From assembly GCA_937891735.1 (NCBI GenBank), contig CALAGR010000064.1, forward strand, positions 26,723 through 90,722: a DNA stretch of 64,000 nucleotides. Reading direction: 5' to 3'. Numbering within the stretch: position 1 is the first letter of the stretch; every line of letters begins with the position of its first letter. This document shows, in pieces, positions 1,447 to 34,722 of the stretch. Below the pieces are notes generated by a model. The model saw only the letters and a list, made by a program, of their open reading frames with translations. It made no database searches and was not told the DNA's origin. Both the position numbers and the translations under genes were made by a program. The DNA comes from an uncultured Pseudomonadota bacterium. Lineage in GTDB: Bacteria > Myxococcota_A > UBA796 > UBA9615.

Positions 1447-1478
1447 CCCGCGCGCAGGACTGGTTACGATGCGCGGCG

Positions 1479-3155: not shown

Positions 3156-3178
3156 GCGCAGACGCGCGGGAGGGCTCT

Positions 3179-4297: not shown

Positions 4298-4364
4298 TCC
4301 GGCAGCATAACCGGCCCGCGCCGCGCGCCGCTCCAGGGGCCCCCGGCTCCCAGCGCGCCCCCCG

Positions 4365-4859: not shown

Positions 4860-4957
4860 TGGTAGACCTCCTACCACGGCGCCGAGTTGGCCTCGTGGGT
4901 GGACGCCGCGCTCGGTACGCTGGGACGCCCATTGGGTGCCGCAGCAGAGGAGCCGCC

Positions 4958-8578: not shown

Positions 8579-8666
8579 CGCGCATCAGCGGGGCGGGCGT
8601 GCCCTGCCCTTTGGCGCGGCGGCCCGTCACTGGCACCATGTGCGCTTCACGGGAGGGGCCCAGCCC

Positions 8667-11989: not shown

Positions 11990-12589
11990 ATGGGTAGCAC
12001 GCGAAGACGCTTCTTGAAGTACGGCCTGGGCGGCGTGGTCCTGCTGGCGGTGCCGGCCATCGGCCTGGGGCTGCGCCCCACGGTGCTGGTGGAGCCCGGG
12101 CGCCCGCTCCAGACCTTCAGCCCGGGGCAGTTCAGCGTGTTGAGGGCGGTGGCCGACGCGTTCTGTCCCGGCACCGAGGCGCTGCCCCCGGCGCGGGACC
12201 TGGCGGTGGCGGAGCAGCTCGATGCGCTGTTCGCGCGCATGCATCCGGGGGTCGGCAAGGATCTCGCTGCGGCCCTCGATCTGCTCGAGAACGCGCTCGC
12301 GTCGGCGCTGCTGGACCAGCGGCTCCAGACGTTCACCGCCTGCTCCGAGGGGGCGCGGGCCGCGGTGCTCGAGCAGTGGAAGACGAGCGGCCTGACCGTA
12401 CGTCGAGCGATCTACAAGGCCCTGCGGGGCTTCGTCATGGCCGCCTACTGGGGCGACCGACGCACCTGGGGCCCGATGGGGTACGTCGGAATGCCGGACT
12501 ACAGCGGCGTGCCGAGCCCCGCTCCGTTCGATGAGTGGATCGCCGCCAGCAAGGCCACGTCCGAGGACGCCGCCGAGGGAACCCAATGA
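11990..12589 (+). CDS. Tat-signal small subunit, gluconate 2-dehydrogenase subunit-3-like
   Basis: The twin-arginine motif STRRRFLKYG follows ATG 11990. Its stop overlaps the ATG of the GMC oxidoreductase (ATGA at 12586-12589), a typical two-gene arrangement. Confidence 0.75.
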   Translation: MGSTRRRFLKYGLGGVVLLAVPAIGLGLRPTVLVEPGRPLQTFSPGQFSVLRAVADAFCPGTEALPPARDLAVAEQLDALFARMHPGVGKDLAAALDLLENALASALLDQRLQTFTACSEGARAAVLEQWKTSGLTVRRAIYKALRGFVMAAYWGDRRTWGPMGYVGMPDYSGVPSPAPFDEWIAASKATSEDAAEGTQ

Positions 12590-14127
12590 CCGGCAGGATC
12601 TTCGGCGCCGCAGACGTCGCCTCCGACATCACGCTGGACCCCCAGGTCTGCATCATCGGATCTGGCGCCGGCGGAGCCGTGCTCGCCGCGGGGCTCGTGG
12701 CCCAGGGCCTGGACGTGGTGATGCTCGAGGCGGGCGGACACTTCACCCGGGAGCAGTTCACGGGGGACGAGGCCTGGTCCTTCGACCGGATGTACCAGGA
12801 GCGCGGAGCCCGGGCGACCGAGGATCTGGCCTTCACGGTGCTGCAGGGACGCACGGTGGGCGGCTCCACCACCATCAACTGGACGACCTGCTACCGCACG
12901 CCGGATCGCGTGCTGGCGCACTGGGCGGAGCACCACGGGATCGAGGGGCTCGACCCGGACACGATGGGGCCGCACTTCGAGAGCGTCGAGCACCGGCTGA
13001 ACATCCGCGAGTGGCCTGCCGGCGCCGCCAACCAGAACAACCAGGTCCTGCTGCGCGGGGGGCAGGCCCTCGGCTGGGACCCGCACCTGCTGCGGCGCAA
13101 CGTGCGCGGATGCGTCAACAGCGGGTACTGCGGCCTGGGCTGCCCGGTGGACGGCAAGCAGGCCATGGGGGTCAGCTACCTGTCGGACGCGGTGCGGGAC
13201 GGGCTGCGCATCTACAGCAACGTGGAGGCCACGCGGATCGAACACGCCAACGGCCGGGCCACGGCGGTGCACGCCTCCGTCCTCGATCCCCACACGGATC
13301 GACCGACCGGCGCCTCGATCACCGTGCGCCCGAAGATCCTGGTGAGCGCGGCCGGCGCCATCAACGGCCCGGCGCTGCTGCTGCGCTCGGGGATCGAGGG
13401 CGGCGGTCTGGTGGGGCGGCGCACGTTCATCCACCCCGTGTGCGGCGTGGCGGGGCTGTACGAGCAGCCGATCAACCCCTGGCACGGCGCGCCCCAGTCC
13501 GTCGGCTGCCACCACTTCAACGTGCGCGGCCCGGGCCAGATGGGCTACTTCCTGGAGTCGGCGCCGCTGCAGCCGATGCTGGCCTCCACCGTGGGGTCCC
13601 AGTTCGGCAGCGAGCACTCCGCGTTCATGGGCCGGCTCGGCCACGTCGGCGTGCTGATCGCCCTGGGGATCGACGGGTTCCTGCCCGAAGACGTGGGCGG
13701 CGCCGTGAAGGTCAAGGCCGACGGCCGGATCTGGCTGGACTACCCGGTGCGGGCCCCGCTCCTGGAGGCGCTGAAGGACGCGCACCTCAACATGGCCCGC
13801 TGCCACCTCGCCGCCGGGGCGTTGGAGCAGGTGACGCTGCACTCCGACCCGGTGCGGATCCGCGGCGAGGCGGATCTGGCGCTGCTGGCGGACGCGCCCT
13901 ACGGCGCCCACAAGCACACGATGTTCACGGCCCACGTCATGGGGGGCTGCGGGATGGGCGGCGATCCGGCCAGCAGCGTGGTGGACACCGAGCACCGGCT
14001 GCGGGGGTTCGAGAACGTGTTCGTGGTCGATGGCTCGGTGCTGCCCACGTCCCTCGGCGTGAACCCGTCCCAGACGATCTACGGCCTCGCCCACCGGGCG
14101 CGGGGCTTCGTGGCAGCCGCGGTGTAG
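12586..14127 (+). CDS. GMC-family FAD-dependent oxidoreductase
   Basis: The N-terminal FAD fold is CIIGSGAGGAVLA...LEAG, and the C-terminal GMC signature region is HVMGGCGMG...VVDGSVLP. Confidence 0.9.
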   Translation: MTGRIFGAADVASDITLDPQVCIIGSGAGGAVLAAGLVAQGLDVVMLEAGGHFTREQFTGDEAWSFDRMYQERGARATEDLAFTVLQGRTVGGSTTINWTTCYRTPDRVLAHWAEHHGIEGLDPDTMGPHFESVEHRLNIREWPAGAANQNNQVLLRGGQALGWDPHLLRRNVRGCVNSGYCGLGCPVDGKQAMGVSYLSDAVRDGLRIYSNVEATRIEHANGRATAVHASVLDPHTDRPTGASITVRPKILVSAAGAINGPALLLRSGIEGGGLVGRRTFIHPVCGVAGLYEQPINPWHGAPQSVGCHHFNVRGPGQMGYFLESAPLQPMLASTVGSQFGSEHSAFMGRLGHVGVLIALGIDGFLPEDVGGAVKVKADGRIWLDYPVRAPLLEALKDAHLNMARCHLAAGALEQVTLHSDPVRIRGEADLALLADAPYGAHKHTMFTAHVMGGCGMGGDPASSVVDTEHRLRGFENVFVVDGSVLPTSLGVNPSQTIYGLAHRARGFVAAAV

Positions 14128-14716: not shown

Positions 14717-16534
14717 ATGGGCGATCTGAACCTGTTCGACGCGTACGACCTCGTGATCCTGGGCGGCGGTCTGGCCGGGCTGACCCTCGCCCGCCAGCTG
14801 GGCCTGGAGCGCCCCGGCACCTCCATCCTGGTCGTCGAGCAGGCGGCGCACCCCTGCCCCGAGTCGGCCCACAAGATCGGCGAGAGCAGCGTCGAGCTGG
14901 CCGGACGCTGGTTCCGGGACACGCTCCAGCTCAAGGACCACCTGGACGAGCAGCACCTGCCCAAGCTCGGGCTGCGCTACTTCCTGCCCGGCGACAAGCA
15001 CGACATCACCTCGCGCCTGGAGTACGGCCCGCTGCTCAACAAGGTGCCCGTGCCCTTCCGGGGCCTGCTGGTGCCGAGCTACCAGCTGGATCGGGGGCGC
15101 CTGGAGACCTTCCTCGCAAAGGACCTGCCGCCCACGACCCACTTCCGGGACACCACCGAGGTGATGGACTTCACCATCGACCGGGCCGGCCACTCCGTCA
15201 CCGTGCGGCGGGGCGACGAACTCGTGACCGTCGCGGCGCGGTGGATCGTGGACGCGAGCGGGCGTCGGGCGCTGCTGAAGACGAAGCTGGGCCTGGCCGA
15301 ACCCGTGGTGCACCACGCCAACTCCGTGTGGTGGCGGGTACAGGGCCGCATCAAGGTGGACGACTGGAGCGACGATCCCGAGTGGAGCAGCCGCATCAAG
15401 GCCCCCATCCGGTGGCAGAGCACGTGCCAGCTCCTGGGTGAGGGCTACTGGATCTGGATCATCGCCCTCGCCCCGAACCGCACCTCGGTGGGGATCGTGG
15501 CCGACCCCCGGATCCACCCCTTCAAGACCATGAACCGGAGCAGCAAGGCCCTTCAGTGGCTGGCCGAGCACGAGCCGCTCCTCGCCGAGGCGATGGCGGG
15601 CCGGGAGGTCTGCGACTTCATGGCGCTGAACGACTTCTCGCGCAACAGCCGGCAGGTGTTCTCGGCGGATCGCTGGGGCATGACGGGCGACGCGGGCCTG
15701 TTCACCGACCCGTTCTACTCGCCGGGCAGCGACTTCATCGCCATCGCCAACACCTACAACCTCGACCTCATCAAGCGCGAGCTGGCGGGGGAGGACATCG
15801 CCGAGCGGGCCGACCGGTCCAACTACTTCTTCAAGCTCCTGTACGACCAGTTCATGCGGGTCTACCGCGACCACTACGTCACCATGGGCAACCCCCAGGT
15901 AATGGCCGCCAAGATGGTGTTCGACAACGCCTTCTACTGGGGCTGGGCGGTGCTCGCGTTCCAGAACGGGCGCCTGTGCGACGTGGACTTCATGCAGGAG
16001 TTCCACGACGAGGTCCTGCGCTCGATCTCGCTGCACGGGCGGGTCGAAGAGCTCCTGCGGGAGTGGAACGCCGCCGAGCAGCCCCCGGTGGCGCCGGGTC
16101 AGTACATCGACCAGTTCGACGTGAAGATGCTCTGGTCCATCTACACGACCCTGATCCGGCCCATCGACGGCGACGTGCTCAAGCGCCGCATGAGCGAGAA
16201 CCTCGACCGGCTCGAGGCGCTGGCTGAGGTGATCTTCCGGCGGGCGACGCGGGGGAATCCACGGGTGCAGGCGGCCGAGCACATCAACTGCCACGTGCTC
16301 ACCCTGGACGAGTCGAAGTGGGACGCGCTGGGGCTGTTCGACGCCCCGGACAAGTCCGCCGCGGTGGCGCGGGTGCGGCAGCAGGCGATCCCGCTGTGGG
16401 TGGACGGATCGGTGGACGCAGCGGCCCGGCTCGCCGCGATCAGCAGGCCCGACGGGCCCGACGCGGCCCTCGTGCCCCAGGCCGCGCCCGCCCCCCTCGA
16501 AGCCGGCGGCTCCTTCGACGCATTTGGCGACTGA
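14717..16534 (+). CDS. FAD-dependent halogenase-like oxidoreductase
   Basis: It has the GxGxxG motif (ILGGGLAGL), HKIGESS (the Lys-containing motif of flavin halogenases), a W.W.IP-like block degenerated to GEGYWIWIIAL, and a long C-terminal helical extension. Confidence 0.65.
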   Translation: MGDLNLFDAYDLVILGGGLAGLTLARQLGLERPGTSILVVEQAAHPCPESAHKIGESSVELAGRWFRDTLQLKDHLDEQHLPKLGLRYFLPGDKHDITSRLEYGPLLNKVPVPFRGLLVPSYQLDRGRLETFLAKDLPPTTHFRDTTEVMDFTIDRAGHSVTVRRGDELVTVAARWIVDASGRRALLKTKLGLAEPVVHHANSVWWRVQGRIKVDDWSDDPEWSSRIKAPIRWQSTCQLLGEGYWIWIIALAPNRTSVGIVADPRIHPFKTMNRSSKALQWLAEHEPLLAEAMAGREVCDFMALNDFSRNSRQVFSADRWGMTGDAGLFTDPFYSPGSDFIAIANTYNLDLIKRELAGEDIAERADRSNYFFKLLYDQFMRVYRDHYVTMGNPQVMAAKMVFDNAFYWGWAVLAFQNGRLCDVDFMQEFHDEVLRSISLHGRVEELLREWNAAEQPPVAPGQYIDQFDVKMLWSIYTTLIRPIDGDVLKRRMSENLDRLEALAEVIFRRATRGNPRVQAAEHINCHVLTLDESKWDALGLFDAPDKSAAVARVRQQAIPLWVDGSVDAAARLAAISRPDGPDAALVPQAAPAPLEAGGSFDAFGD

Positions 16535-17356: not shown

Positions 17357-18364
17357 ATGACGAACGACAAGCAGCTCAAGAGCCGACGCGGCACCTATTC
17401 GCTGCCCCACCTCATGCGCTGGGGCGAGCGGACCGCCTGGCCGGAGCCGACGCCGCGCCCCCTCGTCGGCCCCGACACGAAGATCGCGGCCATCGGGTCC
17501 TGCTTCGCCGAGCGCATCACCGAGTACCTGTCGGCGCGCGGGCTCCACACGACCTTCCACCCCGCCGGGCTGCAGTACAACACCTTCGCCATCCGCCAGG
17601 AGTTCGAGCACCTGTTCGGGACCAGCGGGTACAGCGACGACGACGTGGTGCTGGGCGACGACGGGGTCTGGGAGCACCTGTTCCGCAAGGCCTTCCGCAG
17701 CAAGGAGTCCAAGGAGACGGTGCTCGCGATGGCCAGGGCGGCGGACGTCCTGGCTCGACGCGCGTACGCCGAGGCCGACGTGGTGGTGATCACGCTGGGC
17801 CTCACCGAGATCTGGCAGCGGGAGAGCGACGGACTCGTGGCCGTGGAGCTGCCCCCGGCGCCCTCGTACCGCTCTGGCGGCTGGACCTTCCGCGACGCGC
17901 GGGTCAGCGAGAACATCGCCAACCTGGAGCGCACCCTGGAGCTGCTGCAGGCGAACACGAAGGCCACGGTGCTGATGACGGTGTCGCCGGTGCCCCTCGC
18001 GGCGACCTTCCGGGACGAGGACATCATCGTGGCCAACTGCGAGAGCAAGTCCCGGCTGCGGGCCGCGCTCGCCGACTTCCTGCTCGACCACCCCGACGTG
18101 CTGACCTTTCACAGCTACGAGCTGGTGGCCCAGTGGCAGGGGCAGGGCACGTTCTTCGAGGACGACGGCCGCCACATCAACCCCCAGGGGGTCGCCTTCA
18201 TCATGAACGAGTTCCTGCGCATGTTCGGCAGGGGCGCGATGAAGGCCGAGTTCGTGCCCTTCGGCAGCGTCGCGATGCCCGACCAGACGGCAGCAAGGCG
18301 GCTGTCGCGGCTCAAGTCGAAGGTCGCGCGCAAGGTCCGCCGCCTCAAGGGCCTGGAGGGCTGA
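17357..18364 (+). CDS. GSCFA-family protein (SGNH-like fold)
   Basis: The family-defining IGSCFAE motif lies near the N-terminus, and the length of 335 aa fits the family. Confidence 0.75.
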   Translation: MTNDKQLKSRRGTYSLPHLMRWGERTAWPEPTPRPLVGPDTKIAAIGSCFAERITEYLSARGLHTTFHPAGLQYNTFAIRQEFEHLFGTSGYSDDDVVLGDDGVWEHLFRKAFRSKESKETVLAMARAADVLARRAYAEADVVVITLGLTEIWQRESDGLVAVELPPAPSYRSGGWTFRDARVSENIANLERTLELLQANTKATVLMTVSPVPLAATFRDEDIIVANCESKSRLRAALADFLLDHPDVLTFHSYELVAQWQGQGTFFEDDGRHINPQGVAFIMNEFLRMFGRGAMKAEFVPFGSVAMPDQTAARRLSRLKSKVARKVRRLKGLEG

Positions 18365-18369
18365 GCGCG

Positions 18370-19296
18370 GTGCACGGCCTGGACGGCGCGGCCGTGAGCG
18401 CCCTGGTGGACGCGCGCTTCGCCGCCCTTCGCCACACGCTCGGCCCCCGGCTGCGACCCGGCTTCGACGCCCTGCTCGCGCGCCAGCGCTGGGGGGCGGC
18501 CGCTCCGGGCTGGTACACCGCGCCGGAGTCCCAGCCGATCCTGGTGCTGGTGCTGCAGGTGGCCGAGGCGCTGGGGGACGCGGTGCCGCGCAGCGCCGTC
18601 CAGGACGCCCTCGAGGCGGCGATGCTCGGGTACGCCTTCGTGCGGGTGCAGGACGACTGGCTCGACGACGGCCTGCTGGCCACGGATCCCGAGACCACGG
18701 CCCTGCTCGCCGATGCCCTGCTCGTGCACCACCAGGCCGCCACCGCGCGGGCCGTGGGGGGCGGCGACCCGGCCTACTGGGATCTCTTCGCCCGAACCTG
18801 GACCGGCTACGGCGAGGCGATGCTGCTGGAGCGGGAGCTCCTGCGGGGACCCGCGGCGGGCGCCCCGCCCTACGACGCGGCGGCGTTCGAGGCGGTGCTG
18901 CTCCGCTCCCGGCCCATGGTGCTTCCGCCCGCGGCCCTGCTCGCCCGGGCCCACCACCTGAGCCGGCTGGGTGCCCTGGAGCGGGTGGTGCACGAGGCCG
19001 CGCGCGCGGCGCAGCTGCTGGACGACGCCCTGGACGTGCTGTCGGACTTCGACGCGGGGGCCATGAACCACCTCGTCCAGCGATTCGGCGGCCTGCACGG
19101 ACGGCAGGCCCTGTGCGCAGGTTGGGTCCTGGGCGGGTTCGCCACCGTCTGGGAGGAGGCCGACGCCGCGCTGCAGGCCGCCCTTCACGCCGCCGACGAG
19201 GTCGGGATCAGCGGACCCTTCGGGCGCTTCGTCGCCGCCCGGCGCGCGGTCATGGACCGGGTGCGCGAGGCTGCCTGGGCCGCAGTCACGCGCTGA
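18370..19296 (+). CDS. divergent isoprenoid-synthase-like (polyprenyl synthetase-type) all-helical protein
   Basis: GTG 18370 lies 5 nt after the GSCFA stop. There are two Asp-rich motifs spaced like FARM/SARM: RVQDDWLDD (aa 95-100) and AAQLLDDALDV (aa 218-222). The composition is Ala/Leu-rich and helical. Confidence 0.55.
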   Translation: MHGLDGAAVSALVDARFAALRHTLGPRLRPGFDALLARQRWGAAAPGWYTAPESQPILVLVLQVAEALGDAVPRSAVQDALEAAMLGYAFVRVQDDWLDDGLLATDPETTALLADALLVHHQAATARAVGGGDPAYWDLFARTWTGYGEAMLLERELLRGPAAGAPPYDAAAFEAVLLRSRPMVLPPAALLARAHHLSRLGALERVVHEAARAAQLLDDALDVLSDFDAGAMNHLVQRFGGLHGRQALCAGWVLGGFATVWEEADAALQAALHAADEVGISGPFGRFVAARRAVMDRVREAAWAAVTR

Positions 19297-19393
19297 GAAA
19301 AGGTCGCGCGAACCGCTCATGGTTTCTGTTGCGTGCACTCTTGTGGTACGTGATGGAGGCACGGTTCGGGTCGAATCACCACGGGGACCAACA

Positions 19394-19606
19394 ATGATCA
19401 AGCTTCCGCACGAGACCATCGGCAAGGCCATCGCTGACGCCGACTTCCGCAAGCGCCTCCTGGCAGACCCCAGGGCCACCCTCGCCGCCGACGGCGTGCA
19501 CGCGGACGACGCGACGATCTCCAAGATCGCGGCCCTCGATCCCGATGTCGTCGAGAAGATGCTGTCCGATGCCGGTGGCGCCCTGGGCGACGCGGCCGCC
19601 ATGTAG
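19394..19606 (+). CDS. 70-aa NHLP-clan-like small protein (possible RiPP-precursor-like peptide)
   Basis: The sequence is MIKLPHETIGKAIADADFRKRLLADPRATLAADGV...SDAGG/ALGDAAAM. The IGKA..D..FR..LL.DP...L pattern matches NHLP/Os1348-type leaders as I recall them. GG lies at aa 61-62. The stop is 2 nt before the methyltransferase ATG. Confidence 0.55.
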   Translation: MIKLPHETIGKAIADADFRKRLLADPRATLAADGVHADDATISKIAALDPDVVEKMLSDAGGALGDAAAM

Positions 19607-19608
19607 GC

Positions 19609-20406
19609 ATGAGCGGCGAGCCCGGCGCGGCCCTGGACGCGGTCGCCGCCCTCTACGACCGCCTGAGTCCGACGTTCCTGCGTTGCGCCGGGCCGACCTT
19701 TCAGGCCGGGCTCGTGCGGCGTCCGGACGGCGTTGAGGACGCGGCCTGGTCCAACCGCGCCCTCGCGGAGCGAGCCGGCGTGCAGCCCGGGGCCCACATC
19801 CTCGACGCCGGCTGCGGGGTCGGTGGCCCCGCCTGCGACATCGCCGCCGCGTTCCCGGACGCGCAGGTGGTGGGCCTGACCGTGTCGGTTGTGCAGGTGG
19901 ACCTCGCCACAGAGCGGGCGCGGGCCGCGGGGTTGTCCGAGCGGGTGACGTTCGTGGAGGGCGACTTTCACGCCCTCCCCTTCGCGGACGACACGTTCGA
20001 CGTCGTGCTGTACCTCGAGAGCAGCGAGTACTCCTCCGATCTCGACCGGCTCTTCGCCGAAGCGGCCCGGGTCCTCAAGCCCGGCGGCGCGGTCTACGTG
20101 AAGGGCGCCTTGCGGCGCGAGGGGGCCCTGAGCCCGCAGCAGCAGGCCGACCTCGCCGCGTACGACGCGATGTGGGCGATCCAGCGCACGCCGTCGCCGT
20201 CGGAGATCGCGGCGGCGATGGCGCGGACGGGCCTGGTCGTGGGGCTCCCCACCTGGCTCGAGTTGGGCAGCGGTCACTTCATCGGCAGCATGTTCGAGCT
20301 CGGCCCCGATGGGCTGAAACCCAACGCGTTCGGGCAGGCGCTCTTTCGCCGGTTCGTGGATCTGCCGGTCGGCTTCGCGGACATCCGGGCCGTGTGTCCC
20401 CCATGA
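19609..20406 (+). CDS. class I SAM-dependent methyltransferase
   Basis: Motif I is ILDAGCGVGGP, followed by VVGLTVS, DVVLYLES and LKPGGAVYV. Confidence 0.85.
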   Translation: MSGEPGAALDAVAALYDRLSPTFLRCAGPTFQAGLVRRPDGVEDAAWSNRALAERAGVQPGAHILDAGCGVGGPACDIAAAFPDAQVVGLTVSVVQVDLATERARAAGLSERVTFVEGDFHALPFADDTFDVVLYLESSEYSSDLDRLFAEAARVLKPGGAVYVKGALRREGALSPQQQADLAAYDAMWAIQRTPSPSEIAAAMARTGLVVGLPTWLELGSGHFIGSMFELGPDGLKPNAFGQALFRRFVDLPVGFADIRAVCPP

Positions 20407-20466
20407 CCCGAGCGCGCGCGCACCGGGACCCCGACTGCTAGCTTCGGGCCGGCGCGAAAGGGAACC

Positions 20467-23400
20467 GTGGGCCGAGTCGATCAGTTCTCCAGCTACCTGC
20501 CCCGCAGGTTGATCGACCGGGTGGCCCTGCGGGGGTCGCCGCCCGCCGATGTCTCCAGTGACCACTTCGAGGCAGCGGCGCTCTTCGCGGACATCACGGG
20601 CTTCACGGCCCTCGCGGAGCGCCTCGCCCAGGGCGGACCCCGCGGCGCCGAGCGCCTGACCGATCTGCTGGAGCTGCTCTTCGGCCGACTCATCGAGCAG
20701 ATCCTCGACTCCGGCGGCGACATCATGCTGTTCGCGGGGGACGCGATCCTCGCGGTGTGGCCCGCCGCCGCCGGCTTCCCCCTGGACTCCGCGGCGCGGG
20801 TGGCGGTGAGCTGTGCGCTGGCCTGCCAGGACGCGGTCGCCAACCTCGCGCTGCAGGGCGACGAGGGCGAGCTGACCATGCGCATCGGCGTGGGGGCCGG
20901 CGAGTGCGCGCTGCACGAGGTCGGGGGCACCCAGGGTCGGTGGCTGAGCGTGGCCACGGGCGCCGCGCTGGTCCGCATGGGCCGCGCCGAGAAGGCGAGC
21001 GGGCCCGGGCAGGTGGTGGTCGCCGACGAGGTGTTTCCCCTGGTCGAGGGCGCCTTCGCGCTCGAGCGGATCCCGCGGGGGTGGGTCGTCAAGGCCCGCA
21101 AGGCCCCAGCGCCGCCGTCGCGCCCTTGCAGCCTCGATCCGGACACGCACGTGGCCGAGGACGTCATCCGCGCCTACCTGCCCGACACGTTGATCGCCGG
21201 GATCGACGCCGACCAGGTCCGGTGGATCGCCGAGCTCCGCACGGTGTCTACGGTCTTCCTGCAGCTCCCGACGCTCAACCCCTCCGCGCCGGGCCATCTG
21301 CGCACCCTGCAGTCGGTGGTGATCCGGGTCCAGGAGCTGATGGAGTCGATGGGCGGCGCGCTCAACAAGATCATGTGCGACGACAAGGGAACGACCATCG
21401 TCATCGGGTTCGGGCTCCCGCCCCAGGCCCACGAGGACGACGCGGTCCGCGCGGTGCGCACGGCGAGCCGACTGCGCGAGTTCCTCCGGGCAAGGGAGCT
21501 GTCCTTCGGGATCGGCGTCGCCACGGGCCGGGCCTTCTGCGGCGCCTATGGATCGGATCGGCGCCGCGAGTACACGATGCTCGGCGACTCGGTGAACCTG
21601 TCCGCGCGCCTCATGGCCGCGGCGCGGGACGATGTCCTGTGCGACCAGCGCACCGTCCTGGACTCCCTGGAGCGCCTCTCCTTCGTCGAGCTGCCGCCGG
21701 TCTCGGTGAAGGGCAAGGCGGGGCCGGTGCCCGTGGCCAGCCCCACCGGAGAGCTCGACCTGACGGGCCGCCACGAGGTCCTGCTGACAGGCCGGCACGA
21801 GACCCTGGCCACCGGCCGCTTCGACCTCACCTCCAACCCGGCGGGCTTCGGCACCCTGAGCAACATGGAGCTCCCATCGGCGTTCGACGTGTCGCTCTCG
21901 GGGGACGCGCCAGGTCCCGAGGGGAGCCGCCTGGTGGGACGCGCCGCGGAGCGAGAGCTGCTGGCCCGCCGCCTGGAGGAGCTCTGCGACGACGGCCGCA
22001 AGGGGGTGATCGTCATCGAGGGCGAGGCGGGCTTCGGCAAGTCGCTGCTGGGCGCGTGGCTGCACGGAGCGGCGGTGGGGCGCCAGGTGACCCCGCTGCT
22101 CGGGTCCAGCGAGCCGACCACCCGGGCGGATGCGTGGCACCCCATCCGGGAGGTCTTCGCCCAGCTGCTGGAGCTGGACGGCACCGACGATCCGGCGGCC
22201 GCCGAGCAAGCCGTCGCGCGCCTGCTCGGCGGGCACGAGCGCCTGCTGAGCTGGGCCCCGCTGCTCGGCGACCTGCTGCCCACGGCGCTGGCCTCCAACG
22301 AGACGACCGCCCGCATGACCGGCACGAGCCGCGCGGACGCCCTGCGGGAGCTGCTCGCGGCCCTGCTCCAGGCCGAAGCCGCCCGCAGGCCCCAGCTGAT
22401 CCTGCTCGAGGACGTGCACTGGATGGACGCGACCTCCTGGGCGTTCGTGCGCACCATCGTCAGGAGCGTCGATCGGGTGCTGCTGGTCCTCCTGACCCGT
22501 CCGATGGGCGCGTCCACACCGCCGGAGCTGGAGGAGCTCCTCGGGCGGGCCGACTGTGACCACATCGTGCTCGACTCCCTGCATGACGCCGAGATCGTCG
22601 AGCTCGCCCGACGCCGGCTGCGGGTGAACGAGGTGCCCGAGGCGGTCGCCCGCGCGATCACCACCCGGGCCGAGGGGAACCCCTTCTTCGCGCAGGAGCT
22701 GACGTTCGCGCTCCTGGAGTCTGGCGCCATCGAGGTGTCGGACGGTGTGTGCACGCTGGTTCGACCTGCCGTGAACATCGACCTGCCGGACACGCTGCAG
22801 GCCGTCGTCACGAGCCGCCTGGACCGGCTGGAGGCCCGCCACGGCCTGACCACCAAGGTCGCCTCGGTGATCGGGCGCTCCTTCGGGCAGCTGCTGCTCG
22901 CCGACGTGCATCCCCAGCCAGACATGCGCCTGGTGGTGCGCGGCCACCTGGAGGCCCTGGCCGAGGCGGACATCGCGGAGGTGGAGACCGACGACATCGA
23001 CCCCACCTGGGGGTTCCGCCACATCCTCTTCCAGGAGACGGCGTATTCGCTGCTTCCCTTCGCCCAGCGCCGCGAGCTGCACAGGGAGATCGCGCGCTGG
23101 TACGAGGCCCACCCCCTGGACGACGCGGTCAACGGTCCGCTCCTGGCGTGGCACTGGCGCGGGGCGGAGGAGCTCCCGAAGGCCATCGACGTGCTCGAGG
23201 CCTCCGGCGAGGCGGCGGTGCGTCGGGGCGCGGCGCGGGAGGGCCTGGCCCTGTTCGACGAGGCCCTGGAGCTCAACCGGATCCTGGGCGAACCCGACTC
23301 CCCGGCGTCCCCCGCGAGGCTCGCGCGCTGGCATCAGCAGCGAGGCGCGGCCCTGACCCAGATGGGCGACATGGCCCGCTCCAAGGCGACGTACGTCCTG

Positions 23401-24678
23401 GCCCTGGACAACCTCGGCTTCGCCCTGCCCACCACCGGGCTCGGGTGGGGCTGGATGCTCGTCCGGGCCCTGCTGACCCAGCTGCGCCATCGCTTCCTGC
23501 CGGCTCGACGCACCATCCTTCCCCCGGACGAGGAGGCTCGCCTCAAGAGCGCCGCGCAGGTGTTCTCGGCGTGGGGAACGTGCGGCTACTTCACCATCGA
23601 GGTGATGCACTGGTTCCTGGGCACGCTCCTGGCGATCAACCTCGCCGACGAGACGGGCGACGACCAGCCGGCGGGGCAGGCGCTGGGCTCCTTCGGCAAC
23701 GTCGTCGGCGCCTTGAAGCTGCAGCGAGCGGCGCGGCACTACTTCGACCGCTGCCGCCCCATCGAGAACGCCTACGACCGCACGGTCGGGATCTGGGCCG
23801 AGGCCGTGTTCGAGATGACGTACTGCCGCTGGGATCCGCTGGACCGGGTGCTGCAGGAGGGGATCGCCCTGGGCCGGAGCACCGCGGATCACTACACCCT
23901 CGGGGTCGGGCTGACGGTGCGGGCGGTGGGCTCGTTCCTGCGCGGCGAGATCGAGAGCGCCGTCAAGGATCACCACGAGGTGCTCGTGTCGGCGCGGCAG
24001 CGGGGCAACACGGAGCACGAGTCCTGGTCGCTGACGTTCGGGGTCCCCGCCCTGCTGGGGCTGGGCCGCGACAGCCTCGCCGACGAACAGCTCCAGGCCT
24101 GCGAAGAGCTCGTCGAGCGCCTGGATCCGTTCACCCACGTCGGGTTCCACGGGGTTCGGGCCCAGGTCCGGGCCCGTCGCGCCGACTACGACGGAGCGCT
24201 GGCGGACGTCGCCCGGATGCTGGCGCTGTACGGGCAGCACCCCATCGCCTTGTTCACCCACCTGCCCGGGTTCGCCGGCGCCGGGGAGGCCGTCCTGGCG
24301 GCCCTCGCCGCGTACAACAGCGGGGCCAGCGTGCGCCCCCCACCCGGCTGGACCCTGAACAAGCTCGTCAGGAAGACCTTCGGGCTGATGAACGCAGGGG
24401 CGTTGAGCTTCTTGTACTTCCGGCCCCGGCGGCACCTGCTGAAGGGCACGCGGGCGTGGCACGAAGGGCGGCACGGAGCGGCCCGCAGGGCCTGGGCCAA
24501 GGGCACCGAGCAGGCCGAGGTGTGGCGAATGGACTACGAGGTCGCCCTGATCGCGGTGGAGCGGGCGCGGCTGCTCCCGCCGGGCTCGGCGGACCAGGTC
24601 GCGGCCGACGAGCACGCGCGAGCCACCCTCACCCGGCTGGGCGCCACCGGCGACCTCGCCCGGCTGGATCAGGCGTAG
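20467..24678 (+). CDS. tandem class III nucleotidyl cyclase domains + STAND/AAA ATPase + helical-repeat (TPR-like) region
   Basis: CHD1 reads AALFADITGFTALAE...FAGDAILAVW. CHD2 reads VFLQLPTLN...MLGDSVNLSARLM. Walker A is GEAGFGKS (aa 519-526) and Walker B is LILLEDVHWMD. The C-terminal ~800 aa are helical. Confidence 0.9.
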   Translation: MGRVDQFSSYLPRRLIDRVALRGSPPADVSSDHFEAAALFADITGFTALAERLAQGGPRGAERLTDLLELLFGRLIEQILDSGGDIMLFAGDAILAVWPAAAGFPLDSAARVAVSCALACQDAVANLALQGDEGELTMRIGVGAGECALHEVGGTQGRWLSVATGAALVRMGRAEKASGPGQVVVADEVFPLVEGAFALERIPRGWVVKARKAPAPPSRPCSLDPDTHVAEDVIRAYLPDTLIAGIDADQVRWIAELRTVSTVFLQLPTLNPSAPGHLRTLQSVVIRVQELMESMGGALNKIMCDDKGTTIVIGFGLPPQAHEDDAVRAVRTASRLREFLRARELSFGIGVATGRAFCGAYGSDRRREYTMLGDSVNLSARLMAAARDDVLCDQRTVLDSLERLSFVELPPVSVKGKAGPVPVASPTGELDLTGRHEVLLTGRHETLATGRFDLTSNPAGFGTLSNMELPSAFDVSLSGDAPGPEGSRLVGRAAERELLARRLEELCDDGRKGVIVIEGEAGFGKSLLGAWLHGAAVGRQVTPLLGSSEPTTRADAWHPIREVFAQLLELDGTDDPAAAEQAVARLLGGHERLLSWAPLLGDLLPTALASNETTARMTGTSRADALRELLAALLQAEAARRPQLILLEDVHWMDATSWAFVRTIVRSVDRVLLVLLTRPMGASTPPELEELLGRADCDHIVLDSLHDAEIVELARRRLRVNEVPEAVARAITTRAEGNPFFAQELTFALLESGAIEVSDGVCTLVRPAVNIDLPDTLQAVVTSRLDRLEARHGLTTKVASVIGRSFGQLLLADVHPQPDMRLVVRGHLEALAEADIAEVETDDIDPTWGFRHILFQETAYSLLPFAQRRELHREIARWYEAHPLDDAVNGPLLAWHWRGAEELPKAIDVLEASGEAAVRRGAAREGLALFDEALELNRILGEPDSPASPARLARWHQQRGAALTQMGDMARSKATYVLALDNLGFALPTTGLGWGWMLVRALLTQLRHRFLPARRTILPPDEEARLKSAAQVFSAWGTCGYFTIEVMHWFLGTLLAINLADETGDDQPAGQALGSFGNVVGALKLQRAARHYFDRCRPIENAYDRTVGIWAEAVFEMTYCRWDPLDRVLQEGIALGRSTADHYTLGVGLTVRAVGSFLRGEIESAVKDHHEVLVSARQRGNTEHESWSLTFGVPALLGLGRDSLADEQLQACEELVERLDPFTHVGFHGVRAQVRARRADYDGALADVARMLALYGQHPIALFTHLPGFAGAGEAVLAALAAYNSGASVRPPPGWTLNKLVRKTFGLMNAGALSFLYFRPRRHLLKGTRAWHEGRHGAARRAWAKGTEQAEVWRMDYEVALIAVERARLLPPGSADQVAADEHARATLTRLGATGDLARLDQA

Positions 24679-24685
24679 GAGCCAC

Positions 24686-26359
24686 ATGACGAGCTGGTTG
24701 GAGACAGATCTGTTCGGGCTCGGGCAAGCCGCGTTCGACGACTTCAAGGCCGAGCTGCTCACCTACGGGCTCGACATCGATCCGGAGCTGGAGCTGCGTC
24801 GCGCCAACGGGCTGCTCTGCTACTACAGCGTCACCGATCACCACATCTACCTGTCGATCCCCGAGTGGGACGACACGTCCATCGCCATCTTCCAGATGGT
24901 CGTGGGATCCCTGTTCGACGCCGAGGACGAGGCGGCGCTGCTGCGCTTCCTGAAGCTGTTCATCCCCCGGGTCATCGCCCACGAGATCGGCCACCACCTG
25001 CGCCACCGTCAAGGCCTGTTCGACAAGGCGAACCTGTGGCAGGAAGAGCAGATCGCCAACGAGCTCGCGGTGGCGCTGACCAAGCGGCGCTGGTCCCCGG
25101 AGGACCGGGCCTTCTGCACGCGGTTCATCCGGCGGGCCATCGACTCGCTGGCCACCAAGGTCGGCCAGAAGATGATCGCCAACGACAGCTACAGCGATGT
25201 GCTGGAGGCGCTGTACTCCGAGGGGCGGCTGGGCACCAGGACCGTCATGACGATCCGGGCGGTGGGCGAGCTGTTCGACGTCGAGCCGCTGGACATCCTG
25301 GCCAAGGCGGGCGTGGTTCCGGCCGACGTCGTCGCGCGGCTGGGGGGGCGCGACGACCTGATCACGGACTTCAACGCGACCTACACCAACGACCAGCTGA
25401 CCTACATGTACTACCAGATGGGTTGGCTGCAGGTGGACCTGACGAGCCGCGAGTCGGGGTACATCGACGAGTTCGCGCGGGTCCGCCTGAACGTCGATCC
25501 GGAGCTGCTGCCGCCGGTCCCCAGGGACTACAAGACGTCCACGGGGCAGGTCATGGCGTGCTACCGGGCCCACCAGCGCGCGCTCGCGGCGGGCAGCGAG
25601 GTCGGGTCCAACTACTTCTACAAGCGGTACCGCACCGAGCTGCTGGAGCGGCTGCAGACCGCGAAGCTCGGCGTGCCCGTGCAGGTGGCGGCGCTCAAGC
25701 GCAACGGGGACTTCCTGCTGGAGTCGTGGGACGCGGGAGAGACAGACCGGCTCGAGATGCTCGCGCCCCTGGTGCCGGCCAGGCTGCGCAGCCTGCTGCC
25801 CTCCCGGATCGACCAGACCGTGCAGCCCGACCTGAATGTGCGCGCCCTGCTGACGACGGAGACGGACCGGCGGCTGTTCGAGCACCTGTGTGGCCGGGAC
25901 GACCCGGCCGCCGCGAACACCCTGGAGCGCCTGGCGTTCCTGGATCGCAGCGAGCTGTTCAAGTCGTTGTCGGCCGAGGTCCTGATGGACGTCGCCCACT
26001 CGATGTTCGACATCCGGCTGAGAACCGACGAGGTGATCATCTGGCAGGGCGAGCACCAGAACGACGTGTACGTCACCGCCGCCGGGGCGCTGCGGTACGA
26101 GGCGAGGAACGCGCGCGGAGCCCTGGTGAAGAAGGGCGACATCGTGGTCGGTCAGGTGTTCGGCGAGATGTCGTTCCTCGCGGACCAGGCCCGCAACGCG
26201 ACCATCGTGGCCTCGGAGCCGACGCGGCTGCTGGTGGTCAAGGGGGCGGACCTGTCGGTGCTGATCTACGAGCACCCCTCGATCATGAAGAGGCTGGCCA
26301 CCGTGATGGTCCGGCGACTGGCGGCGACGATGGCCGACGGAGCCGGCGGGGCCGGTTGA
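24686..26359 (+). CDS. HExxH (ImmA/IrrE-like) putative metallopeptidase region fused to a C-terminal cyclic-nucleotide-binding domain
   Basis: It starts 7 nt after the cyclase-STAND stop. AHEIGHHLRH lies at aa 98-107, followed by EEQIANELAVAL. The C-terminal cNMP phosphate-binding cassette reads FGEMSFL...RNATIVA. Confidence 0.8.
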   Translation: MTSWLETDLFGLGQAAFDDFKAELLTYGLDIDPELELRRANGLLCYYSVTDHHIYLSIPEWDDTSIAIFQMVVGSLFDAEDEAALLRFLKLFIPRVIAHEIGHHLRHRQGLFDKANLWQEEQIANELAVALTKRRWSPEDRAFCTRFIRRAIDSLATKVGQKMIANDSYSDVLEALYSEGRLGTRTVMTIRAVGELFDVEPLDILAKAGVVPADVVARLGGRDDLITDFNATYTNDQLTYMYYQMGWLQVDLTSRESGYIDEFARVRLNVDPELLPPVPRDYKTSTGQVMACYRAHQRALAAGSEVGSNYFYKRYRTELLERLQTAKLGVPVQVAALKRNGDFLLESWDAGETDRLEMLAPLVPARLRSLLPSRIDQTVQPDLNVRALLTTETDRRLFEHLCGRDDPAAANTLERLAFLDRSELFKSLSAEVLMDVAHSMFDIRLRTDEVIIWQGEHQNDVYVTAAGALRYEARNARGALVKKGDIVVGQVFGEMSFLADQARNATIVASEPTRLLVVKGADLSVLIYEHPSIMKRLATVMVRRLAATMADGAGGAG

Positions 26360-32457: not shown

Positions 32458-34722
32458 TCAGCCCACGGCGCGCTCTTCGCCCAGGAGCCCGCTCAGGGGC
32501 ACGGCCTCGCTGAACAGGAAGCCCTGGCCGTGGGTGCAGCCGAGCGCGACCAACGCCTGACGCTGCGCCTCCGTCTCGATCCCCTCCGCCGACGTGTCCA
32601 GCCCGAGCTTGTCCGCCACGGACAGGATCGCCTCGCAGATGGGGCCGGGCCCGCGCTCCCCGAGCTCCTGGACGAAGCTGATGTCGATCTTGAGCACCTG
32701 CAGGTCCAGCCGGTGCAGGTAGCTCAGGGAGCTGTACCCGGTCCCGAAGTCGTCCAGAGCGACGCGGATCCCGCGGGCCGTGAGCCGGCTGAAGGTCTGA
32801 CGGGTCCGCGGCAGATCGACGAGCAGGACCGACTCGGTGACCTCCACCTGCAGGCGGTGGGGCGGCAGGCCGGAGCTGGCCAGGGCCGCGAGCACCCAAT
32901 CCTCGATCCCCCGGTCCCGGAACTGGCGGGCCGACAGGTTCACGCTGAGCAGCAGGTCCGGTAGCGCCCCGATCTCCCGCATGGCGCGGGCGATGATCTG
33001 CTTGTCGAGCTCCGCCACGAGCCCCGTCTCCTCCGCCCGGGGGATGAAGGAGCCCGGACCGCGGACCGATCCGTCGGGCTGGGGCCAGCGGGCCAGCGCC
33101 TCCACCCCCAGCAGCTCCCCCGTGCGCAGATCGACGATGGGCTGGTACCAGGGCACGAACTCCTGTCGGTCGAGGGCGCCGCGCAGGGCCGCGTCGAGCT
33201 CCATCAGGCTGCGCACCCGGGCGCGCAGGCTCGGCTCGTAGAAACGGACCGAGACCGTCGCCTCGGACTTCGCCGCGTACATCGCCATGTCGGCGTCGGC
33301 CAGGAGCTCTTCCGGCTCCCGGTAGTCCAGCGTGGCGATCAGGATCCCCAGGCTCGCCTGGATCAGGACCTCCTCGCCCCGGATCGGGAACGGCGCGTCC
33401 AGGGCCGCCACGCACCGCCGCACCACCACCTGGAGCGCCGCCGCGTCCGAGACGCCCCGCAGCAGCAGGGCGAACTCATCGCCCCCGATGCGGGCCACGG
33501 TGTCCGGCTCCCGCAGCGTCGCCGCGAGCCGCTGCCCGACCTCGACCAGCAGCGCGTCCCCGGCGGCGTGCCCGAAGGTGTCGTTGACGACCTTGAACCT
33601 GTCCAGGTCCAGGAAGACGACCGCGAAGTCTGCGACGCATGCGCGGCGCGCGTCGGCCAGGGCCTGACCCACCCGGTCGTGGAACAGGTCGCGGTTCGGC
33701 AGGCCCGTCAGGGGATCGTGGAAGGCCCGGTGCTGCAGCTCCTGCTCCAGCCGCTTGGTGGACGCGATGTTGCTCAGCGAGCCCACGCAGCGAGTGGCCC
33801 CGCTGCTGCCGTCCCCGACCACGCGCCCACGGCTCTGCACCCACAGCCAGGTGCCGTCGGCGTGCCGAATCCGGTAGTCGATGGCGAACTCGGGCGCCGA
33901 GCGCTGGACCGGCGCGCCCAGACTGTTCGCCGCCATCTGGCGGTCCTCGGGGTGCACCCGCTCCAGGAAGGCGGCGATGCTGGTGGTCACGGCTCCCGCG
34001 GGCCCGCCCAGGAGCTGCTGGATCCCGGGACCCCGCCAGAGGGCGCTGGTGGCCTGATCACAGTCCCACACCCCGAACAACGCGCCTTGCCCCGCCAGCT
34101 CGTAGCGCTCGATCAGGGCGGCGCGCTCCGCGTCTGCGTCGCCGAACCGGCGCAGGCCCTGCTCGATCCGCCTCGTCAGGCTCCAGGCGAGCAACCCCAC
34201 GATCAAGAACAGCGCGCTGCCGATCCGCAGGGAGGTCAGCGATGTGTCGGGGCGCAGCGGCTCCGGCAGGGCTCCCTGGAGCTCCAACCCGTACAACGCC
34301 AGCCCGAAGAGCACGCCGAAGCCCGCGAAGAACCAACCGGCGCGAGGGCGGACCAGCACCGCAGACAGGAGAATGACCACGACCCAGCCGACGAACGGCA
34401 CCGAGTTGACGCCTCCGAACCACGTGGCCCGACCGAGGAGCGTCAGGGTGACCACCGACAGGATCACCAGACGGCCCACCGCGCCGCGGTTCGAGCGGAT
34501 CAGGCCGATCCCGATGCCCAGACCGCCGAAGAGGGCGACGGCGAGCCCCGCCAGCGCGGGTTGGAAGTCGGTGATCGCAAAGGAGGTCAGGACGGGGATC
34601 CCGACGATCAGGATCGCCCCCGCGGCCATGGTCGCCACGCGGTTCCTGAGGGCCTCGATCTCGAGCGCGACGGCCTGCTGTCCGATGTGACTGTCCACGG
34701 CGTTCCTGGGGCCCTCCGCCAC
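32458..34722 (-). CDS. membrane-anchored PAS-GGDEF-EAL protein (c-di-GMP turnover)
   Basis: The N-terminal region has multiple TM segments. It carries GGDEF (RIGGDEFALL), EAL (LGVEALARW) and a DDFGTGYSSL block. Confidence 0.9.
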   Translation of the reverse strand: MAEGPRNAVDSHIGQQAVALEIEALRNRVATMAAGAILIVGIPVLTSFAITDFQPALAGLAVALFGGLGIGIGLIRSNRGAVGRLVILSVVTLTLLGRATWFGGVNSVPFVGWVVVILLSAVLVRPRAGWFFAGFGVLFGLALYGLELQGALPEPLRPDTSLTSLRIGSALFLIVGLLAWSLTRRIEQGLRRFGDADAERAALIERYELAGQGALFGVWDCDQATSALWRGPGIQQLLGGPAGAVTTSIAAFLERVHPEDRQMAANSLGAPVQRSAPEFAIDYRIRHADGTWLWVQSRGRVVGDGSSGATRCVGSLSNIASTKRLEQELQHRAFHDPLTGLPNRDLFHDRVGQALADARRACVADFAVVFLDLDRFKVVNDTFGHAAGDALLVEVGQRLAATLREPDTVARIGGDEFALLLRGVSDAAALQVVVRRCVAALDAPFPIRGEEVLIQASLGILIATLDYREPEELLADADMAMYAAKSEATVSVRFYEPSLRARVRSLMELDAALRGALDRQEFVPWYQPIVDLRTGELLGVEALARWPQPDGSVRGPGSFIPRAEETGLVAELDKQIIARAMREIGALPDLLLSVNLSARQFRDRGIEDWVLAALASSGLPPHRLQVEVTESVLLVDLPRTRQTFSRLTARGIRVALDDFGTGYSSLSYLHRLDLQVLKIDISFVQELGERGPGPICEAILSVADKLGLDTSAEGIETEAQRQALVALGCTHGQGFLFSEAVPLSGLLGEERAVG

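Follow-up and report, generated by a model that had tools for sequence, protein, structure and literature searches.

The 64,000-nucleotide stretch of contig CALAGR010000064.1 (assembly GCA_937891735.1) from an uncultured bacterium of the Myxococcota_A, which is called the window in the following, encodes a nucleotide cyclase with a STAND-type NTPase module that is directly followed by a protein combining an HExxH motif with a cyclic nucleotide monophosphate-binding (cNMP) domain. Our analyses suggest that this pair could be the signaling and processing arm of a peptide-maturation cassette at positions 18370–26359, in which a zincin gated by cyclic AMP (cAMP) processes the peptide encoded by the same cassette, and we regard the chances that this reading is right or wrong as about even. 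The components are of known kinds. What appears to be new, as judged from the sequences, is the candidate cNMP-gated zincin, the association with an NHLP-type peptide and an enzyme of the prenyl-synthase fold, and the use of a STAND cyclase of the soluble adenylyl cyclase (sAC) type as the signaling module. In the literature, we found none of these three elements described.

The reading draws on the conserved neighborhood of the HExxH-cNMP gene. We fetched 90 related loci (a scan of genome contigs gave at least 4 true loci, and a metagenome scan gave 74), called their open reading frames (ORFs), searched for each partner with an iterated hidden Markov model (HMM), and dereplicated the loci at 90% identity. 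All counts refer to the 19 resulting clusters that had at least 5.5 kb upstream and at least 2.5 kb downstream of the HExxH-cNMP gene. A small peptide gene was found in 17 of these 19 loci, and hyp304, the gene of the prenyl-synthase-like enzyme, in 16 (17 if L039 is included, where it is located at a distance of 6.2 kb). A STAND cyclase or STAND kinase was present in 12 loci (about 60%) and a methyltransferase in 7. The HExxH-cNMP gene is therefore more consistently accompanied by the peptide than by the cyclase.

The same association is seen with distant relatives of 800–970 amino acids, which have the HExxH...EEQxAN region at the N-terminus, HEAT repeats in the middle, and a cNMP domain at the C-terminus. 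The two neighborhoods of such relatives that were checked (L093 and L095) both contained a Pfam polyprenyl_synt gene beside the HExxH-HEAT-cNMP gene, and in L093 the latter directly follows polyprenyl_synt and three tandem Frankia_peptide genes. As these distant relatives retain both the zincin-like and the cNMP domain, the combination is ancient and stable. Based on the synteny counts and on the fact that the distant relatives keep these genes together, the peptide forms the conserved core of the cassette together with the prenyl-synthase-fold enzyme and the HExxH-cNMP protein, and a dedicated cyclase is a frequent accessory. In L093, the region upstream of the cassette (positions 1–5239) contains genes for a TrwC relaxase and an HTH_17 protein as well as integrase fragments, and because of these genes this copy may reside on a mobile element, unlike that of the window.

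The order of the genes differs between lineages. In the clade of the window, hyp304, the peptide, the methyltransferase, the STAND cyclase, and the HExxH-cNMP gene follow each other co-directionally and tightly spaced. Anaerolineae loci have the order STAND, hyp304, HExxH-cNMP, peptide, and a paralogue of hyp304 of about 650 amino acids, the C-terminal 340 or so residues of which have no Pfam match (for example L024 12005–13999 and L015 12084–14057). In Polyangiaceae-type loci, the HExxH-cNMP gene is followed by a gene for a 72-residue peptide and by hyp304, with or without a radical S-adenosylmethionine (SAM) enzyme, and kinase-type STAND proteins are encoded nearby. Pkinase-DUF5939 and Pkinase-AAA_16 STAND proteins are found in the place of the cyclase in such loci (L014 4571–15631; L016 13174–17184, minus strand), which also have radical SAM and AAA_33 genes after hyp304. 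The cyclase is thus replaced by STAND kinases in some loci, and it is fused to its putative receiver in one lineage.

The two genes of the pair are very closely spaced in the window. The cyclase gene (20467–24678, plus strand, GTG start) encodes 1403 amino acids, the HExxH-cNMP gene (24686–26359, plus strand, ATG start) 557 amino acids, and the gap between them is exactly 7 nt (24679–24685), with an AGGAG that overlaps the upstream TAG. This spacing and the position of the ribosome-binding site have the geometry of translational coupling. A sequence-only reading, made earlier on this DNA, had placed both ORFs at these coordinates on the plus strand with the 7-nt spacing, which we could confirm, and all motifs it had quoted were found again, namely GEAGFGKS (residues 519–526) and LILLEDVHWMD (644–654) in the cyclase and AHEIGHHLRH (98–107), EEQIANELAVAL (120–131), and FGEMSFL...RNATIVA (492–509) in the second protein. 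As the GC content at third codon positions is 0.94–0.95 for both ORFs, we consider both to be real genes. An antisense ORF of 2215 amino acids (18115–24762, minus strand) spans the cassette; it fails the codon-position GC filter that annotated genes pass and was rejected as a shadow ORF of high-GC DNA.

The pairing recurs in about 12 of the 19 dereplicated loci. The cyclase and HExxH-cNMP genes are adjacent or overlapping in L008–L013, L015, L017, L018, L021–L027, L035, L039, L057, L058, and L066, which comprise the clade of the window (L008–L013) and many Anaerolineae loci with different gene orders. Moreover, a natural fusion exists: P0283 is a single polypeptide of 2001 amino acids, the N-terminal part of which is 38% identical to the cyclase-STAND protein over 99% of the query, and residues 1433–1976 are 41% identical to the HExxH-cNMP protein. 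This fusion occurs on 4 contigs, and the two loci that were fetched (L091 8001–14006 and L092 817–6822) come from two samples and have the same cassette neighborhood. Within the NTPase part of P0283, there is a weak Pfam match to BrxC_BrxD. A second, partial fusion is P0159 in L037. Co-conservation of the pair in related genomes, the absence of which had been named as a refuting result, is thus borne out. In view of the synteny, the translational coupling, the natural fusion, the intact cyclase residues, and the intact phosphate-binding cassette of the receiver (Glu494/Arg503), the cyclase and the HExxH-cNMP protein are functionally linked, as far as sequence can tell. We therefore regard it as extremely improbable that a general cAMP-signaling STAND protein and an unrelated cNMP-binding protein became neighbors by chance. 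Such an accident would fit with the high frequency of cyclase-AAA_16-TPR proteins, of which at least 1660 matches were found in bacteria, in line with the earlier caution that they are abundant, and with the roughly 40% of cassettes that have none nearby, but it would explain neither the fusion on 4 contigs nor the coupling geometry nor the recurrence of the arrangement with different gene orders in Anaerolineae and in the clade of the window.

The HExxH-cNMP protein begins with a zincin-like core (about residues 1–160), continues with a family-specific helical domain (about residues 160–410), and ends with the cNMP domain (residues 444–527). The latter, already proposed from the sequence, was clearly recognized by Pfam (cNMP_binding, PF00027, 45.5 bits against a cutoff of 27.5, E 7e-12). 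Its phosphate-binding cassette (26159–26212) contains FGE494...R503-N-A-T, which aligns with the FGE...RAAT of sites A and B of the RI-alpha subunit of protein kinase A (PKA), and the Arg/Glu pair that had been suggested for inspection is therefore in place. In 32 diverse family members, neither G493 nor R503 varies, and the conservation of E494 and T506 is at least 90%.

Conservation of the N-terminal part is equally detailed. H99-E100-x-x-H103 (24977–25006) lies on a helix formed by residues 82–108 that follows strands within residues 37–56, and E120-E121-Q-x-A-N125 (25043–25078) lies on the next helix (117–135). Invariant in the 32 members are A98-H-E-x-x-H-(H)-x-R, E120-E-Q-x-A-N, and the Y-K-R-Y-R of the helical domain (YFYKRYR at 25613–25633 in the window), as well as W247 and R222 of the same domain. 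H99ExxH103 and E121-Q-I-A-N-E-L-A are invariant or nearly so in these sequences, and the pattern holds across the superfamily: HExxH was present in 119 of 145 representatives, fragments counted, and the listed matches almost all have the downstream xEE..AN. The conserved Glu is thus found 17–18 residues after HExxH on the next helix. In the AlphaFold2 (AF2) model of the full-length protein (pLDDT 89.5, pTM 0.88), a three-stranded sheet is followed by the HExxH helix and then by the EEQxAN helix, which in this model is the gluzincin order of elements.

The fold comparisons were less clear. With the full-length model, Foldseek returned matches to the cNMP domain only, and the N-terminal 412 residues were therefore modeled alone, which gave a less confident model (pLDDT 77). 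This model had no significant match in the PDB or BFVD, with a best E of 0.3. The weak PDB matches with appreciable probability were all small zincins (abylysin, jannalysin, selecase, IrrE/PprI, and ArdC), and those in BFVD were SprT-like and IrrE-like, all with E of at least 0.3. The N-terminal region, for which a zinc-peptidase model had been expected, thus shows this order of elements in the model and has no significant structural match. Similarly, Pfam gave sub-threshold matches only over the HExxH region (Zn_peptidase, Peptidase_M78, and DUF2268). Peptidase_M78 (PF06114) scored 12.1 bits where 22 are required (E 0.17) and covered residues 96–131 only. As the HMM score is below the cutoff and the Foldseek match has an E of about 0.5, we rejected membership in the M78 (ImmA/IrrE) family, with which the sequence-only reading had matched the motif arrangement; of this proposal, the HExxH/E..AN motif and a zincin-like topology remain, and "ImmA/IrrE-like" holds for the motif and the probable fold only.

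It is in principle conceivable that the HExxH-cNMP protein is not a peptidase, and that its metal site carries out other chemistry on the peptide or an isoprenoid, or that the protein responds to cAMP as a scaffold for the prenyl-synthase-like enzyme or as its regulator. HExxH motifs are also known from non-proteolytic enzymes of pathways for peptides that are ribosomally made and modified after translation (RiPPs), such as the TIGR04267-type HEXXH proteins. In agreement with such a function, significant similarity to characterized peptidases is lacking, the helical domain of about 250 residues with its invariant YFYKRYR, W247, and R222 suggests functions beyond those of a minimal protease, and the HExxH-cNMP gene often overlaps hyp304. 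Nevertheless, we consider this explanation unlikely, as the arrangement is that of a classical gluzincin, with an HExxH helix, a Glu 17–18 residues further on, and a small sheet in front, as the fold neighbors with any probability are all zincin peptidases, and as the loss of an HEXXH protein raises the level of the small protein Os1348 (PMC7726476).

The family itself is small, and its synteny is clear-cut. Full-length homologues of about 550 amino acids are found in Anaerolineae/Chloroflexota, in Polyangiaceae, and in the high-GC clade of the window, and an exhaustive search of 1.84 billion proteins with a profile of the N-terminal 412 residues recovered no more than 269 clusters at 50% identity. 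The combination of zincin and cNMP domain is represented neither by a Pfam or NCBIfam model nor by a relative of solved structure, and database entries of relatives are merely labeled "cyclic nucleotide-binding domain-containing protein". Our literature searches found no description of the HExxH-cNMP family, no paper that joins a cNMP domain with a metallopeptidase as well as with a RiPP and a cyclase, and nothing on "Franean1_4349".

The cyclase-STAND protein could be characterized with more certainty. Pfam identified two Guanylate_cyc domains, AAA_16 (52.4 bits against a cutoff of 32.6), and AAA_22, and the best PDB match was human ADCY10 (4clf, E 1.4e-41), which covers the first 430 residues with C1 followed by C2. 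The proposed cyclase output and P-loop NTPase are thereby confirmed. In the C1 domain (about residues 25–218), the metal-binding residues Asp42 and Asp92 are retained in FADITGFT (20584–20607) and FAGDAILAVW (20731–20760), and in the C2 domain (about residues 220–429), Lys301 is retained in LNKIMCDDKG (21361–21390) and Thr370, Asn377, and Arg381 in YTMLGDSVNLSARL (21571–21612), with Asn and Arg being part of VNLSAR. Lys301 and Thr370 correspond to the purine-specifying residues in the ADCY10 alignment. As the catalytic residues that align with ADCY10 are intact, the tandem C1-C2 domains should form a single competent active site of the sAC type, and the objection that the cyclase might be catalytically dead does not apply. 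The bicarbonate site of sAC, with Lys95 and Arg176 in the human enzyme, is not kept: the lysine is replaced by Leu, and the arginine aligns with Gly, with an Arg one position to either side.

The NTPase module has the features of a STAND protein, with an AAA_16/NACHT-type P-loop, a Walker A motif (GEAGFGKS, 22021–22044, plus strand), and a Walker B motif (LILLED, in the segment 22396–22428, plus strand). The C-terminal 700 or so residues are helical. The helical repeats of about 800 residues that had been described were not detected by Pfam in the protein of the window; TPR matches were found in homologues only, which are annotated as class 3 adenylate cyclase/TPR. Full-length mammalian sAC also consists of C1-C2 and a module predicted to be a STAND P-loop NTPase, and what regulates this module is not known (PMC12802110).

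The enzyme at the beginning of the cassette, hyp304 (18370–19296, plus strand, 308 amino acids), is predicted to have the isoprenoid-synthase fold of polyprenyl and terpene synthases. Its GTG start at 18370 was inferred, with the alignment of homologues included, and the protein has no name in Pfam or NCBIfam. The family profile (A3) matched the polyprenyl synthetases 4lob (E 7e-5) and 7lbj (1e-3) in the PDB and reached about a dozen further geranyltranstransferase or polyprenyl-synthase entries with weaker E-values. The two Mg-binding motifs of the isoprenoid-synthase fold are invariant in the family as Y..R..D(D/N)..D and NDxxDxxxD, and in the window, the Asp-rich motifs are VRVQDDWLDD (18640–18669) and LLDDALDVLSDFD (19015–19053). 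As the iterated HMM of hyp304 does not detect the bona fide polyprenyl_synt neighbors of the distant relatives, the link between the two holds at the superfamily level only. In the context of the cassette, hyp304 is a candidate for a peptide-modifying enzyme similar to ComQ and PalQ.

Upstream of hyp304, with a gap of 5 nt, there is a gene for a GSCFA-family protein (17357–18364, plus strand, 335 amino acids, Pfam GSCFA E 3.5e-49) that is probably co-transcribed with the cassette in the window. It was not found in the related loci L008–L012 with tblastn and is thus not a conserved member; its position is occupied by a trypsin-PDZ protein in L008 and by a 294-residue protein in L011.

Between hyp304 and the cyclase, a small peptide and a methyltransferase are encoded. 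The sequence-only reading had noted that no substrate is encoded nearby, which was not borne out, since a conserved gene for an NHLP-clan peptide of about 70 residues is located 5 kb upstream of the HExxH-cNMP gene in the same operon (19394–19606, plus strand, 70 amino acids, ending with ...GGALGDAAAM). This small peptide of the Os1348 family ("Frankia_peptide") matched NCBIfam NF038399 (Os1348 family NHLP clan protein) with 42.3 bits at a cutoff of 40. Pfam Frankia_peptide had an E of 6.5e-10 but stayed under its cutoff, and the canonical NHLP leader model TIGR03793 was not reached (25 bits against 50.9). The profile of the peptide family (A4) matched the crystal structure of Os1348 (6lk7, E 6.6e-8) and the NHLP leader 8tb1. 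Based on these matches and its position, the peptide is a candidate substrate or scaffold.

The peptide gene ends 2 nt before the gene of a class I SAM-dependent methyltransferase (19609–20406, plus strand, 265 amino acids; Pfam Methyltransf_11/25/31, E 1e-19 to 1e-23), which is found at the same position in L008–L012, L037, L039, L058, and L091 and, judged by this distribution, is an accessory cassette gene in the clade of the window. As no conserved Cys is present in the peptides of the family, a CaaX-like logic of prenylation, zincin cleavage, and carboxyl methylation was not adopted; the three types of enzymes are present, and the resemblance is an analogy only.

The peptides of the family have about 66–74 residues, are helical, and have an NHLP-like N-terminus. 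They are conserved from end to end within each clade, with variation only in the last 1–3 residues, and they end in ...AA-x(1-3), a tail that is nearly invariant (the window has GDAAAM, Anaerolineae have DNKAASL or QQAAL, and Polyangiaceae PSQPAAYxT). The canonical pattern of RiPP precursors, with a conserved leader and a variable core, was not found in this family. In some loci, the peptide gene is present as three nearly identical tandem copies, the products of which differ mainly at the last 1–3 residues, such as ...RRQGA, RRQGAG, and RRQGAGG (triplets at L045 7227–7957, minus strand; L056 3072–5590; L093 6237–6982). These properties would also fit with a scaffold-peptide pathway, in which the isoprenoid-synthase-fold enzyme, jointly with a methyltransferase or radical SAM enzyme, builds a small molecule on the C-terminus of a carrier, the zincin frees this product and returns the scaffold for reuse, and cAMP sets the flux. 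The full-length conservation with the near-invariant end and without a variable core, the triplets that differ only at the extreme C-terminus, and the variation of the tailoring genes between clades (the methyltransferase here, radical SAM in L014) all agree with such a pathway. As an enzyme that adds amino acids (PEARL/LanB-like) is absent from the cassette, however, and as the enzyme family has no known chemistry, we think that this explanation is rather improbable.

A further possibility, closest to the original proposal, is a stand-alone messenger-gated protease of the ImmA/IrrE type, with a STAND cyclase that senses a threat and an M78 peptidase that cleaves a repressor or another target, in a defense or stress switch comparable to Pycsar or CBASS. 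The cyclase and its receiver are indeed linked, the HExxH...E..AN..A motif resembles that of M78, IrrE/PprI is among the weak fold matches, and PADLOC models for PycC and Pycsar effectors produced matches. The latter, however, cover the generic cyclase catalytic and cNMP domains only and reflect general domain homology, and the M78 score remained at 12.1 bits against 22. No XRE/HTH gene was found in the cassette or conserved in the flanks of the related loci that were examined, which deprives the suggested repressor-cleavage logic of its partner, and no relatives were found among 2.9 million viral contigs. The cyclase is of the sAC type with the Lys/Thr residues of purine cyclases, and it is the peptide and the prenyl-synthase-like enzyme, and not the cyclase, that accompany the HExxH-cNMP gene most consistently. 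This explanation is therefore most improbable, the parallel to Pycsar and CBASS was dropped, and nothing supports a role in defense.

The surroundings of the cassette agree with this view. The flanks encode housekeeping and signaling proteins (among them a glycosyltransferase-like protein, a trypsin-like protease, a molybdopterin enzyme, a PAS-GGDEF-EAL protein, an amine oxidase, a GMC oxidoreductase, and MopE repeats), the GC content is flat across the region, and there are no flanking defense genes and no compositional shift, exactly as had been noted before. Syntenic flanks are found in a relative at 80% identity, and L008 shows this synteny for the downstream genes. Because of this synteny, the gene of the PAS-GGDEF-EAL protein 6 kb downstream (32458–34722, minus strand) belongs to the chromosomal backbone and not to the cassette. 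Further upstream on the plus strand, there are genes for a GMC oxidoreductase (12535–14127) and a 605-residue protein similar to FAD-dependent halogenases or monooxygenases (14717–16534), which are not conserved with the cassette in the related loci, and a gene for a 771-residue protein (8640–10955) in which Pfam recognizes seven putative metal-binding repeats of the MopE type (E 1.9e-49). MopE-type repeats are common in Myxococcota, with which the high GC content also agrees, and they may hint at the lineage of the host.

With the peptide-maturation cassette as the preferred reading, the following sequence of events can be envisaged. First, hyp304 would modify the peptide in its conserved C-terminal part, in the manner in which ComX and PalX are modified by ComQ and PalQ, and the methyltransferase may act on the peptide as well in this clade. 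The NTPase and helical-repeat module of the STAND cyclase would then sense a signal, possibly the product of the peptide, and the cyclase would respond with what is presumably cAMP. Binding of cAMP to the C-terminal cNMP domain, the residues for which are conserved, would switch on the gluzincin-type metal site. Finally, the active zincin would cut the peptide of its own cassette after or in concert with the modification, as suggested by the co-occurrence of the genes and by the precedents of Os1348/Os1350 and PalX, and this cut could either remove the NHLP-like leader or release the C-terminal tail.

Several observations weigh against this scheme. We infer the peptidase activity, its substrate, the product of the cyclase, and the gating by cAMP from sequence features. 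The N-terminal domain has no significant sequence or fold match to any characterized peptidase, neither in the Foldseek comparisons described above nor with a profile of the domain, which had 0 matches among PDB sequences. About 40% of the cassettes have no cyclase nearby, L004 and L071 have the HExxH-cNMP gene alone, and no conserved exporter was found in the cassette. As the family of cyclase-AAA-TPR proteins is so abundant, most of its members are not tied to this cassette. The lack of a hypervariable core is atypical of RiPP precursors, and the conservation of the whole peptide would suit a small structural or regulatory protein just as well. No Trp is present in the C-terminal region shown for the listed family peptides, and because of this the chemistry of ComQ and PalQ cannot apply as such.

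The most far-reaching version of the proposal is a new type of bacterial RiPP or peptide-signaling circuit, with a full-length sAC-type STAND adenylyl cyclase as the receptor inside the cell and a dedicated zincin that is gated directly by cAMP and carries out the maturation of an NHLP-clan peptide modified by the prenyl-synthase-like enzyme. We put this forward tentatively and with more doubt than confidence. If true, it would be the first cyclic-nucleotide-gated protease, and direct control of a peptidase by cNMP would add a new class of output to bacterial cAMP signaling. The cassette would also link a second messenger with the biosynthesis of a peptide natural product or pheromone, and it offers a candidate for the "unknown protease" step in the maturation of ComX- or PalX-like NHLP peptides. 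In addition, a STAND cyclase in one operon with a candidate source of its ligand and a candidate effector would make the question of the sAC regulator approachable in bacteria and provide a tractable genetic model for what the STAND module of sAC senses.

A comparison with known systems helps to place the cassette. Pycsar and CBASS share with the pair the two-gene arrangement of a nucleotide cyclase and a nucleotide-sensing effector, and Pycsar effectors also have cNMP-binding domains. A pyrimidine cyclase, a TIR or membrane effector, and a defense island, as are typical of Pycsar, were not recognized for the window pair. Its cyclase appears sAC-like with a STAND module, its effector would be a zincin, and the pair lies within a peptide/prenyl-synthase cassette. 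ImmA/IrrE (M78) proteins have in common with the HExxH-cNMP protein an HExxH followed by a Glu in an E..AN..A-like helix and a small zincin core, whereas the window protein fails the HMM, has no XRE/HTH partner, and contains about 250 additional helical residues and a cNMP domain.

Large kinases beside NHLP-Burk precursors were already noted by Haft et al. (PMC2887384), and the TOMM kinase/cyclase fusion family (TIGR03903) also comprises large STAND-type proteins beside genes of the NHLP family. The cyclase-STAND protein reached 153.7 bits over residues 488–927 with this model, which covers the STAND module only and is far under the cutoff of 705.75, and it has no kinase domain and no cyclodehydratase or other TOMM machinery nearby. 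By these scores, it is a homologue and not a member of the family. ADCY10, the full-length sAC (sACfl; PMC12802110), is similar in the C1-C2 tandem of the same order with its catalytic and Lys/Thr residues, to which the sequence match is confined, and in the subsequent STAND-type P-loop and long C-terminus. It differs by Lys95, which is Leu here, by Arg176, the equivalent of which is ambiguous, and by the fact that the gene of the bacterial protein shares an operon with that of a candidate effector.

The known systems that come closest are the Os1348 cluster and the ComQX/PalPXQ cassettes for prenylated pheromones. Os1348 of Pseudomonas sp. Os17 is clustered with an HEXXH gluzincin, the deletion of which raises the level of Os1348 (PMC7726476). 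The small protein belongs to the same NHLP-clan family as the peptide of the window, and in Os1348-Os1351 (OS3) a gluzincin-like HEXXH partner affects the level of the small protein. In contrast to the window protein, Os1350 carries Peptidase_MA and TIGR04267 domains but lacks a cNMP domain, and its partners are GNAT and SagB-type proteins instead of an isoprenoid-synthase-fold enzyme, without a cyclase. PalPXQ of Paenibacillus alvei comprises an NHLP-type precursor with a conserved C-terminus, a prenyltransferase of the isoprene-synthase fold, and a sensor kinase; which protease takes off the leader is not known, either for PalX or for ComX (PMC10853753). The cassette described here differs from ComQXPA of Bacillus and PalPXQ in that its peptides are without Trp, the acceptor residue of ComQ and PalQ, in that the relation of hyp304 to polyprenyl synthases is only remote (E 7e-5 in the PDB), in that a STAND adenylyl cyclase or STAND Ser/Thr kinase takes the place of the histidine kinase, and in that the hosts are Anaerolineae, Polyangiaceae, and a high-GC lineage and not Firmicutes; it also encodes a cNMP-binding zincin of its own. 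What the systems have in common is a small precursor, an adjacent enzyme of about 300 amino acids from the isoprene-synthase superfamily, and a dedicated signal-transduction protein within the cassette.

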